A DNA stretch of 64,000 bases from Patescibacteria group bacterium (GTDB lineage: Bacteria > Patescibacteriota > Microgenomatia > UBA8517). Below are positions 34,913 through 54,967 of this stretch, in pieces (the first letter of the stretch is position 1; every line of letters starts with the position of its first letter). A program made the translations under genes and the position numbers. Under the pieces are notes generated by a model. That model did not search any database. It saw nothing but the letters and a program-made list of their open reading frames with translations, and was not told where the DNA came from. The stretch spans positions 57,444-121,443 of the forward strand of contig DAITMO010000001.1 of assembly GCA_036835125.1 (NCBI GenBank), written 5' to 3'.

Positions 34913-35530
34913 GTGAAAAAGTTTTTGACTACATTGTCTACATTTTCTTTATTTATTGTATCTATTATATTTTTATTTTCTTTTTTTACAGAAAAGGCTT
35001 TGTCTCAATCACCCATTAAATGTGGTTACTTAGATGAACCTTGTTGTGATTTTGCTGGTTCAACTTTATCTTGTGATACTGGATTAGTTTGTTTAAATGG
35101 ATCTTGTGTATCAGATGGGACTATAGAGAACCCGCCAACGAGAACAGAAGTGTTGAATGAGTCTAATTATACACCTGGTGAAGGAATAGCCCCTTCAACA
35201 AATAATAAGAATCAAAATATATTATGTGATGGATCAACGGGAATAAGCACGGCGATTGGTTGTATTCATGCACTTGGAGATGAAAATGCTTTCTTAAATG
35301 ATTTGTTAAAGTGGGCTGTGGGTATTGGTAGTGGAATTGCGTTTGTACTTATGCTTGTGGCTGGTTTTATGATAATGACAGCACAAGGAAATCCAGAGAG
35401 ATTAAAGGCTGGACAAGAACTATTGACCTCTGCGATAGCAGGCTTAATACTTTTGATCTTTTCAGTGTTTATACTCAAATTTATTGGAATTGATATACTA
35501 GGTTTAGGAAAATTTGGTTTTGGAAAATAG
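34913..35530 (+). CDS. Secreted Cys-rich protein with a C-terminal VirB2/TrbC-like two-helix pilin module
   Basis: 205 aa. Signal peptide, then a PCC-containing Cys-rich domain, then the hydrophobic-GxxPERLK-hydrophobic module shared with the seven downstream paralogs. Confidence 0.5.
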   Translation: MKKFLTTLSTFSLFIVSIIFLFSFFTEKALSQSPIKCGYLDEPCCDFAGSTLSCDTGLVCLNGSCVSDGTIENPPTRTEVLNESNYTPGEGIAPSTNNKNQNILCDGSTGISTAIGCIHALGDENAFLNDLLKWAVGIGSGIAFVLMLVAGFMIMTAQGNPERLKAGQELLTSAIAGLILLIFSVFILKFIGIDILGLGKFGFGK

Positions 35531-35887
35531 ATGAATAAACTATTAACGCAAGTAAATTTTGATAAATTACAAGTACCTGCCGAGGGTGGATTAATTGGAA
35601 ATGCAAATAGTGGAAGTCTTAAATTTGGAGACATAATTGGACAAATATTTTCCACATATATATTCTATGCCGCAGGAATTGCTCTTTTAATATATTTAAT
35701 AATTGGTGGTTTTCAGTTTATGCTTTCAAGGGGAGATCCAAAGGCCACTCAAGCAGCACAGGCTAGAATTAGCAATGCCGTTATTGGTTTTATAATTATT
35801 TTTCTTGCCTTTATAATTGTTCAACTTGTGGGACAATTGTTTGGACTTAGTGGTACTATTTTTGGAGAAATTTTTAAACAACAATGA
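35531..35887 (+). CDS. VirB2/TrbC-like small two-helix membrane protein, paralog 1
   Basis: 118 aa with a variable N-terminus, then TM1-GGFxFMLSRGDPKATQAAQARI-TM2. Confidence 0.5.
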   Translation: MNKLLTQVNFDKLQVPAEGGLIGNANSGSLKFGDIIGQIFSTYIFYAAGIALLIYLIIGGFQFMLSRGDPKATQAAQARISNAVIGFIIIFLAFIIVQLVGQLFGLSGTIFGEIFKQQ

Positions 35888-36216
35888 AACACTTAACTGC
35901 AGCGTTTGATATAGGTTCAAAGTTTTTTGGAGAAAATTCAAATAATCCTTTGGCAAAAGGTGATGTTACTGGAGTTGGAAATGTTGTTTCTTTGTTTTTG
36001 AACATCGCATTTGTTCTTGCAGGGCTTATTCTTCTCTTTTTTTTCATTTTAGGAGGAATTGGTCTTATTGGTAGTGCAGGTAAAGAAGATCCTCAAAAAA
36101 ATGAACAATCAAAAAAAACAATTACTTCAGCAATAATTGGATTTGTTATTGTGTTTGCATCCTATTGGATAGTAAAATTAATAGGTCAACTCTTAGGAAT
36201 TGAGGGACTAATATAA
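35884..36216 (+). CDS. VirB2/TrbC-like small two-helix membrane protein, paralog 2
   Basis: 110 aa with the same TM1-GGIGLIGSAGKEDPQK-TM2 module. Overlaps the upstream gene by 4 nt. Confidence 0.5.
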   Translation: MKHLTAAFDIGSKFFGENSNNPLAKGDVTGVGNVVSLFLNIAFVLAGLILLFFFILGGIGLIGSAGKEDPQKNEQSKKTITSAIIGFVIVFASYWIVKLIGQLLGIEGLI

Positions 36217-54457: not shown

Positions 54458-54490
54458 TTTGTATATAATTAAAATAATAAAAAAACAAAT

Positions 54491-54967
54491 ATGAATTTAT
54501 TTAAAAACAAAAAAAATATAATATTTGTTATCTTGTTAATATTGAGTGTTGTTAGTGTTATCTGGATATTGTCTGTAATTAATGGTGGAAAGAACACACA
54601 AAATACAGAGCCTGCTCCTGTTAAATTTCAACTAACAAGAACTATTCCAAAAGACAATACAACAAACGAGTTTCCGGTCGGAACTGCTATCGAGTTTGAT
54701 TTTAATAAAGAGATAGATATACAAACATTAGTTTTAAATACAACTCCAAAAACAGAAACAACTTTCGACACGAACTCAAATAAAACTGTTTTATATGTGC
54801 GTGCGGTTGGGGGATGGAAAATTAATATCCCTTATTTAATAATTGTTGATGTCAAGGATTCAGACGGACAAAGTCTTGATGAAAAAATAAAACTCAACTT
54901 TACACTAACACAACCAACATCTTCAGAAATGAATGAAATACCAGTTGATGGATATTCTTTTCAATAA
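54491..54967 (+). CDS. Hypothetical membrane-anchored protein
   Basis: 158 aa with an N-terminal TM helix and a beta-rich C-terminus. Confidence 0.35.
   Translation: MNLFKNKKNIIFVILLILSVVSVIWILSVINGGKNTQNTEPAPVKFQLTRTIPKDNTTNEFPVGTAIEFDFNKEIDIQTLVLNTTPKTETTFDTNSNKTVLYVRAVGGWKINIPYLIIVDVKDSDGQSLDEKIKLNFTLTQPTSSEMNEIPVDGYSFQ

Follow-up and report, generated by a model that had tools for sequence, protein, structure and literature searches.

The closest described relatives of the locus reported here are the type IV secretion systems (T4SSs) of Patescibacteria, which are treated in two papers. In Southlakia epibionticum, a member of the Saccharibacteria, transposon sequencing shows that the T4SS locus is essential for epibiotic growth; this locus has a pilin array and no recognisable type IV coupling protein (T4CP) or relaxase, and protein export or another role was suggested for it (Wang et al. 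2023, PMC10633639). According to Quinonero-Coronel et al. (2025, PMC12102498) the patescibacterial VirB4 proteins form a clade sister to the mating-pair formation type MPF_FATA, with TrsD as the commonest partner and a VirB3 of the PrgI type. VirB2 arrays of 2-11 genes are found, notably in Microgenomatia and Saccharimonadia, VirB6 is hard to detect in Microgenomatia, and a position next to dnaA/dnaN is reported for Microgenomatia and Paceibacteria. Relaxases occur in only 103 genomes, and 148 of 5,713 T4CP homologues lie near virB4. A host-interaction role other than conjugation was proposed for Saccharibacteria in the first paper and for the whole phylum in the second, and reviews restate these findings, one of them calling the substrates and mechanism “completely unknown” (PMC11665869). 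Here we describe a T4SS-like locus at positions 34913-54967 of a 64,000-nucleotide stretch, the window, from contig DAITMO010000001.1 (assembly GCA_036835125.1, positions 57,444 to 121,443), which is low-GC (~35%) chromosomal DNA of a Woesebacteria-related Microgenomatia bacterium.

The core of this locus is a member of the known patescibacterial T4SS and is not novel. We consider it probable that the whole is a chromosomal, origin-proximal T4SS of the patescibacterial type, derived from MPF_FATA, for which we infer a non-conjugative role in host contact. Set beside the T4SS loci of Saccharibacteria and other Patescibacteria it is the same system, since core parts and the dnaA/dnaN position match. 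With the S. epibionticum locus (SEML1_0006-0019) and the systems of PMC12102498 it shares an MPF_FATA-related VirB4, TrsD, a PrgI/VirB3 protein, a protein that is VirB6-like by topology and position, an array of divergent VirB2-like pilins, hydrolase genes after virB4 and the lack of a relaxase or T4CP nearby. It differs from the S. epibionticum system in belonging to another class, the Microgenomatia, and in being known here from genes alone. It also differs from the clade in carrying a YcaO/SagB cassette and a variable slot gene, the latter not discussed in the available parts of either paper.

A VirB4 scan of one genome per GTDB species returned more than 587 relatives, and the synteny work used the best 80 of these, all metagenome-assembled genomes of Microgenomatia, with which the proteins of the window were compared by tblastn; labels such as L088 or L091 denote the related loci retrieved. 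The open reading frames (ORFs) between 34913 and 54967 are closely packed, with several 4-nt overlaps, and all except one lie on the plus strand. VirB4 (49664-51616, plus strand, 650 aa) is an ATPase of the CD1110 or MPF_FATA type, scoring 375.8 bits with NF045971 (cut-off 325) and matching P-loop_TraG at 6e-28, and its Walker A (ATSGAGKS) and Walker B (LLIVDE) motifs are intact. Its N-terminal domain is encoded as a separate TrsD-like ORF of 238 aa (48951-49667, plus strand) that shares 4 nt with virB4. This ORF matches the N-terminal part of the VirB4 model NF045975 at 1.5e-9, over model positions 102-235, and the TrsD model NF041427 at 1.9e-8, with the TrsD and VirB4-model scores both under the curated full-length cut-offs, and its precomputed Pfam assignment is the TraC-like PF26593. 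Upstream lies a PrgI/VirB3-like membrane protein (47850-48950, plus strand; PF12666 30.5 bits, cut-off 27) with a C-terminal beta-sandwich that gives a sub-threshold CarboxypepD_reg match (20.3 bits). Gene calls for this protein are 348-359 aa long, and the start is likely the ATG at 47904. A sequence-only reading of this DNA had named both a two-ORF VirB4 and a VirB3-like protein fused to a beta-sandwich domain, and the family matches bear out both.

The same reading had called a polytopic protein of the locus VirB6-like, and here the evidence is more mixed. The 564-aa protein (40859-42553, plus strand) begins with a signal peptide or transmembrane (TM) segment, followed by hydrophobic blocks at residues 171-475, and has 26-28 orthologues in the same position, so that topology and position both fit. 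The family signal comes from one of 19 orthologues, which matches TrbL/VirB6 at E=1.5e-3. The protein itself has no direct match to a hidden Markov model (HMM), a profile of the 19 orthologues finds nothing in the Protein Data Bank (PDB), and its hhalign comparison with PrgH is negative.

The first gene of the locus (34913-35530, plus strand) encodes a pilin with a signal peptide, a Cys-rich N-terminal module and a C-terminal VirB2-like pilin domain (PF18895, 34.4 bits, cut-off 26.6), an assignment that also draws on its eight cysteines and its TM pattern. It is followed on the same strand by seven further VirB2-like paralogues, assigned with PF18895 and by alignment (35531-35887, 35884-36216, 36220-36573, 36570-36956, 36956-37318, 37334-37669 and 37713-38021). 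The array, already recognised as pilin-like from the letters alone, thus comprises eight tandem small ORFs with two TM segments each over 34913-38021, six of which pass the gathering score of PF18895 (T4SS_pilin). The ORF at 36956-37318 reaches 24.4 bits against the cut-off of 26.6, and that at 36220-36573 has no PF18895 match, though it can be aligned with the other pilins. At 11-26% identity the seven paralogues align to the pilin domain of the first, each with a GGD(P/K) loop and its two TM helices; adjacent genes abut or share 4 nt.

After the pilins comes a 913-aa secreted protein (38064-40805, plus strand), whose orthologues hold the same locus position in relatives. The sequence-only reading had described it as Cys-rich and secreted with a tail like that of a soluble lytic transglycosylase (SLT) or lysozyme. 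The first part stands, with a signal peptide and 30 cysteines, and the second is supported by none of the sequence tests. In the C-terminal domain of ~180 aa the Glu of the motif LW(I/V)xE(S/T)(G/A/D) is invariant, but no SLT or lysozyme family was found in it by Pfam (the domain alone and eight orthologues), by sequence or profile search of the PDB, or by hhalign against PrgK of pCF10, and the sole output of these tests was one orthologue matching Glucosaminidase at E=0.11. In locus L088 a 650-aa protein downstream of virB4 (11720-13672) carries a domain like this C-terminus in tandem fusion with an M23-like domain. A wall-hydrolase role for the 913-aa protein is put forward as a putative one. 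As a separate observation, the N-terminal extension of the first pilin (34913-35200) and the N-terminus of the 913-aa protein (38150-38400) both contain a module that is rich in Cys and bears the motif PCC(D/E).

A second putative hydrolase is encoded directly after virB4. This 944-aa membrane protein (51623-54457, plus strand) has a cytoplasmic coiled-coil N-terminus, Gly-rich TM blocks at residues 463-654 and an extracellular C-terminus ending in an M23-like peptidase domain. Searched singly this domain gave no match, whereas with a profile of the C-terminal domains of nine orthologues every PDB match was an M23 peptidase (8s3m at 5.5e-4, 9gy1 at 5.9e-3, and further ShyA, SpoIIQ and others), and two orthologues match Pfam Peptidase_M23 directly, so that the M23-like motif reported earlier in this Gly-rich protein now has family support. 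An Asp, a His and the HxH motif are invariant across orthologues. The histidine of the canonical HxxxD is replaced, and therefore peptidase activity is not assured. Despite the positive profile search, hhalign of the M23-like profile against PrgK of pCF10 was negative. At the same position other relatives have a CHAP (L011) or NAGPA (L020, L021) domain in place of M23, and this alternation points to a modular wall-hydrolase carrier, like PrgK in pCF10, with a putative PrgK/VirB1-like role for the 944-aa protein. The locus closes with a 158-aa membrane-anchored Ig-like protein (54491-54967, plus strand) that has an N-terminal TM segment and a Big_5 domain (26.3 bits, cut-off 23.6).

The prototype of MPF_FATA, the Prg/Pcf system of the Enterococcus faecalis plasmid pCF10, resembles this arrangement in its CD1110-family VirB4, its PrgI-family protein and the order VirB6-like protein, VirB3-like protein, VirB4 and large wall hydrolase, which is that of PrgH-I-J-K. 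It differs in having the T4CP PcfC, a relaxase, MobC and adhesins, in lacking pilins and in encoding VirB4 as a single ORF, and its PrgK and PrgH show no detectable sequence similarity to proteins of the window. The ATPase module would energise the building of a channel or pilin fibre across the wall, opened for this by the hydrolases.

Genes for DNA transfer were sought over ~80 kb, comprising the window and 10 kb past each end. For 1-33123, 38 other selected ORFs were scanned with Pfam as concatenated pseudo-proteins, and for the region to the right of the locus and the two flanks we used precomputed Pfam annotation of the source contig. No coupling protein of the VirD4/TraG/TcpA type, no relaxase of the MOB families and no integrase or recombinase domain was found in this region by Pfam, and a repeat search at the locus turned up nothing resembling att or oriT, all repeats being short, AT-rich matches due to chance. 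The absence of these elements, noted earlier for the window, therefore extends to ~80 kb; the flanks, where a VirD4 homologue and a relaxase between repeats might have marked an integrative conjugative element, hold neither. The missing T4CP is not a failure of sensitivity, because the same Pfam models detect a VirD4-like protein inside the locus of five Gottesmanbacteria-like relatives (L049, L052, L053, L056 and L061). These proteins score 26-33 bits with TrwB_AAD_bind (cut-off 20.5), match DUF87 and TraG-D_C and have the Walker A motif GKTGTGKS. Each is soluble and encoded by a minus-strand gene just upstream of prgI, at ~5.6-7.8 kb in L049, L053, L056 and L061 and at 1036-3237 in L052. Upstream of it, four of the five loci have a further unannotated minus-strand ORF of 1200-1365 aa.

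Most of the 80 loci share one gene order: pilins, the ~900-aa protein, the ~560-aa polytopic protein, a large minus-strand gene, PrgI, TrsD, VirB4, hydrolase, dnaN and dnaA. By tblastn PrgI was matched in 72 of them, TrsD in 74, and dnaN with dnaA in 64. The recurrence of this order and of the dnaN/dnaA position in most of the 80 genomes argues against a mobile element and agrees with the earlier placement of the locus on the chromosome. Conservation across the T4SS proteins is steeply graded. In the six closest full loci, identity to the window is 80-90% for VirB4, 69-82% for TrsD and 54-70% for PrgI, and 35-40% for the 564-aa, 29-44% for the 913-aa and 28-39% for the 944-aa protein; dnaA, compared in three of the closest loci, is 67-85% identical.

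Both the lack of T4CP, relaxase and integrase over ~80 kb and the stable position at dnaN/dnaA support the proposal, made from the sequence alone and already published for related systems (PMC10633639 and PMC12102498), of a host-interaction machine and not a conjugation system. By analogy with the essential T4SS of S. epibionticum, the machine would serve host-cell contact, through export of protein or other cargo or through uptake. T4SSs that work without VirD4 and outside conjugation are established in Bordetella Ptl, Brucella VirB and Helicobacter pylori ComB (PMC12857230 and PMC12102498). These resemble the present locus in having no VirD4 coupling protein, and are unlike it in being diderm MPF_T systems with outer-membrane core complexes and with substrates that are DNA or pass by way of Sec, while the window encodes a monoderm-type machine.

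Two parts of the locus are less well known, namely the gene in a variable slot, at the position of the coupling protein in sister lineages, and a cassette resembling those for thiazole/oxazole-modified microcins (TOMMs) with an undescribed family of protein substrates. The slot gene (42586-45144, minus strand) lies between the VirB6-like gene and the YcaO cassette and encodes a soluble 852-aa protein without a match in Pfam, NCBIfam or PADLOC. Among 1.84 billion representatives searched exhaustively with HMMER there are 59 relatives, 41 of them at E<=1e-10, mostly of 600-1050 aa with a conserved core at about residues 330-840. Two remote relatives, with 26% and 33% identity over the aligned stretches, occupy the same slot in opposite orientation between the VirB6-like gene and prgI, and their T4SS loci adjoin dnaN, which makes this a family specific to T4SS loci. 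The AlphaFold2 model of the protein is confident (pLDDT 88.8, pTM 0.90) and has no structural relative in the PDB or BFVD.

Almost without exception, the slot of Woesebacteria-like loci is filled by a single gene that is transcribed in the opposite direction and encodes a large (~530-1000 aa) soluble protein. By phmmer these proteins are mutually unrelated, and the idea that all slot proteins form one diverged family was rejected, as their hhalign scores equal those of unrelated control proteins. The family of the 852-aa protein is patchy relative to VirB4 identity. It fills the slot in L093, L097 and L014 (VirB4 90%, 81% and 80% identical to that of the window) and not in L091, L099 and L011 (90%, 87% and 87%), so that the occupant differs even between close relatives. 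The slot has the look of a place for interchangeable cargo in a machine that is otherwise conserved, and the 852-aa protein could be a lineage-variable cargo or a substrate adaptor. A defence hot-spot was also considered and rejected, PADLOC matches being confined to HerA-like (T4CP) and ClpB-like slot members. Two of the related T4SS loci contain in addition a gene of 123-127 aa similar to 23S_rRNA_IVP/bAvd (L091, 11769-12140; L096, 35-418); in diversity-generating retroelements bAvd is the accessory protein Avd.

Beside the slot gene are three genes on the plus strand, in which the YcaO module named in the sequence-only reading is confirmed by matches to the YcaO and nitroreductase families. 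The first encodes a SagD-like YcaO cyclodehydratase (45219-46577; PF02624 165 bits, TIGR03604 215.1 bits against a cut-off of 219.25), the second a SagB-type FMN dehydrogenase of the nitroreductase fold (46581-47213; PF00881 74 bits, TIGR03605 123.8 bits, cut-off 78.4) and the third a 189-aa predicted YcaO substrate (47248-47817) made up of a long helix, an alpha/beta sandwich, a Ser-rich disordered linker and the C-terminus GGCCCCSAN. Only a handful of relatives of the 189-aa protein were found in 5.8 billion proteins, and a profile search for its family behind a word prefilter gave at least 10 clusters. Homologues of the YcaO protein formed 75 clusters at E<=1e-20, which were followed into their contigs, and eight contexts were examined.

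Every cassette examined consists of YcaO and SagB followed by a single 188-260-aa protein or by two or three of them, and in L093 and L100 such substrate paralogues stand in tandem. The C-terminal (H/Y)PF of YcaO is kept in all eight. The substrate family shares an N-terminus of MPIEIIKR or MSPSITEII, a charged helix, a globular part with LxWG and AxAYLxPxR motifs and the Ser-rich linker, and its extreme C-terminus is GCCCC, CCGECCC or CECCCEC in every cassette. Most likely, as predicted from sequence and because of the established activities of SagD- and SagB-type enzymes, YcaO and SagB would act on the 189-aa protein by ATP-dependent cyclodehydration and oxidation and make consecutive thiazoles from its C-terminal CCCC. 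The streptolysin S-type TOMM clusters (sagA-I) are similar in that a SagD-family YcaO and a SagB-family dehydrogenase adjoin the substrate. They differ in having a SagC-like partner, the SagE protease and the SagFGHI exporter, all missing from the cassette of the window, which moreover is embedded in a T4SS locus and has a substrate whose “leader” is a folded domain of ~170 aa and whose core is only ~7 residues. The core of streptolysin S begins with a run of Cys after Gly-Gly, which the GG-CCCC of the substrate recalls.

What suggests a link between cassette and T4SS is conserved position. In six of the eight contexts (the window, L091, L093, L099, L102 and L103) the cassette sits in the T4SS slot immediately upstream of prgI, and in the other two (L098 and L100) it lies outside T4SS loci. 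We see an even chance that YcaO, SagB and the 189-aa protein form an independent cluster of the type that makes ribosomally synthesised peptides with post-translational modifications (RiPPs), placed in a permissive intergenic slot and with no functional tie to the T4SS. The two contexts outside T4SS loci favour this, as does the absence of the module from all of the first 80 VirB4-related loci, including relatives with 85-87% identical VirB4, and the slot accepts unrelated genes too. Against it, the cassette keeps one and the same position in all six T4SS contexts, oriented like prgI and set close to it, and its residence has lasted while YcaO identity to the window fell to 50%, VirB4 being kept at 83-90%; the cassette also brings no exporter with it, and the substrate lacks a signal peptide. 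In L100 (5347-10964), where the cassette is not in a T4SS locus, the substrate is present as three paralogues in tandem, each with the ending NCECCCEC, and a radical-SAM/SPASM gene comes after them. In the papers searched, YcaO in Candidate Phyla Radiation (CPR) genomes is mentioned only among antiSMASH hits and never in T4SS loci.

In the main reading the TOMM-type cassette is inserted beside the slot gene, its SagD and SagB proteins most likely modifying the Cys tail of the 189-aa protein. A stronger version makes the accessory genes cargo of the machine. The 189-aa protein with a tetrathiazole tail, or a peptide released from it, might be presented or delivered by the T4SS and act on the host envelope in the manner of streptolysin S, as a contact-dependent factor, and the large slot proteins might be exchangeable effectors, or adaptors replacing the coupling protein. 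We regard this as unlikely. Of similarly low probability is that the machine imports, as a ComB-like uptake T4SS by which the cell obtains DNA or nucleotides, or building blocks of another kind, from its host. T4SSs without a T4CP do include the ComB uptake system of H. pylori, and a PNAS perspective raises this possibility for Saccharibacteria, which can do without competence genes but need the T4SS (PMC11665869). However, the locus has no DNA-processing or DNA-binding proteins, and a ComFC-like gene at 28835-29539 points to a separate competence route.

We consider it very improbable that the locus is the mating-pair formation module of a conjugative or integrative element whose T4CP and relaxase lie elsewhere, or the decaying remnant of such an element. 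The VirB4 is of the conjugative CD1110 type, sister lineages have a VirD4-like gene in the locus, and patescibacterial VirD4 homologues are often distant from virB4 (PMC12102498). This must be set against ~80 kb free of relaxase, T4CP, integrase and att repeats, the same chromosomal site beside dnaN/dnaA in most related genomes and the small number of patescibacterial genomes with relaxases given in the same source. The locus is not decaying, because VirB4 is 80-90% identical among close relatives and its Walker motifs are intact. The weakest candidate, that in the 852-aa protein we see a coupling protein that has degenerated or diverged strongly, was suggested by its gene having the position and opposite orientation of the VirD4-like gene of Gottesmanbacteria-like loci, and was rejected as largely refuted, the protein having no Walker A motif (no P-loop) and no hhalign similarity to the T4CP of the sister lineages.

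Several points weigh against the main reading, that of a non-conjugative host-contact T4SS with these two additions. Essentiality of the T4SS was shown in Saccharibacteria, a class other than Microgenomatia, and the genome could have a T4CP or relaxase gene at another place, given that in PMC12102498 most patescibacterial VirD4 homologues are found far from virB4. No VirB8-like protein was identified. It is position and topology that underlie the VirB6 assignment of the 564-aa protein and the lysozyme-like assignment of the 913-aa protein, and the cargo or adaptor role of the 852-aa protein is one we purely infer. None of the eight cassettes has an E1-like or RiPP recognition element (RRE) partner, there is no protease or exporter in the YcaO cassette, and its occurrence outside T4SS loci in L098 and L100 means that the linkage may be accidental.

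The surroundings of the T4SS locus are made up of housekeeping genes. Divergent from the pilin array is a gene for a SpoIID-like cell-wall enzyme (33139-34851, minus strand; Pfam SpoIID 1e-19), which adjoins the array in L097 as well and is possibly associated with the T4SS locus. The ORFs in 1-33123 are otherwise housekeeping genes, for enzymes of glycolysis and the pentose-phosphate pathway, penicillin-binding proteins (PBPs), EF-P, acetyl-CoA synthetase, sigma-70, DnaG and SmpB, and the Pfam scan also found there a class II aminoacyl-tRNA synthetase-like protein and the ComFC-like protein. The right side and the 10-kb flanks are likewise of housekeeping content, with rnpA, yidD, yidC, a KH/R3H protein, Wzy_C, RNase H, DUF4012 and L25, and further a class I tRNA synthetase, TsaD, TsaE/Sua5, PBPs, NrdR and RNR. 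Proteins identical to those of the window are also encoded on the ENA contig ERZ724080 NODE_127 and on an NCBI contig. Promoter and terminator scans performed no better than on shuffled sequence.

After the locus come dnaN and dnaA on the minus strand, and DnaA boxes cluster in their spacer (56093-56299), ~1.1 kb from the end of the locus. A perfect box lies at 56246-56254 and boxes with one mismatch at 56234 and 56267; boxes are given over 56234-56378, and a second perfect box (57766-57774) lies upstream of dnaA. The cluster is likely oriC. The 20-kb T4SS block is transcribed toward it and would therefore run head-on to the leftward replication fork, an orientation kept in related loci.

Elsewhere in the window, a group I intron (18188-18407, minus strand; Rfam RF00028, 80.6 bits) lies directly against a partial match to a tRNA, which together probably make up a tRNA gene split by the intron and missed by ARAGORN. 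Within 4.3 kb (26058-30368) are found four genes for tRNA-Ser, one for tRNA-Arg and a tmRNA gene, the last adjoining smpB. The ~2.4 kb at 61726-64000 that appear non-coding in the ORF list are the 5' part of an 877-aa DUF4012 gene crossing the end of the window.

The slot protein and the azole-forming cassette are concrete candidates for what a patescibacterial T4SS handles, the tie to secretion being one of position. The cassette has long been part of the locus and comes with an undescribed class of protein substrate. If the accessory genes were indeed cargo, they would provide the first candidate substrates for the patescibacterial T4SS, which is essential in the one species tested. The 188-260-aa family, which combines a folded domain with a tail rich in Cys, would for its part widen YcaO/TOMM chemistry in Microgenomatia by a new type of substrate.

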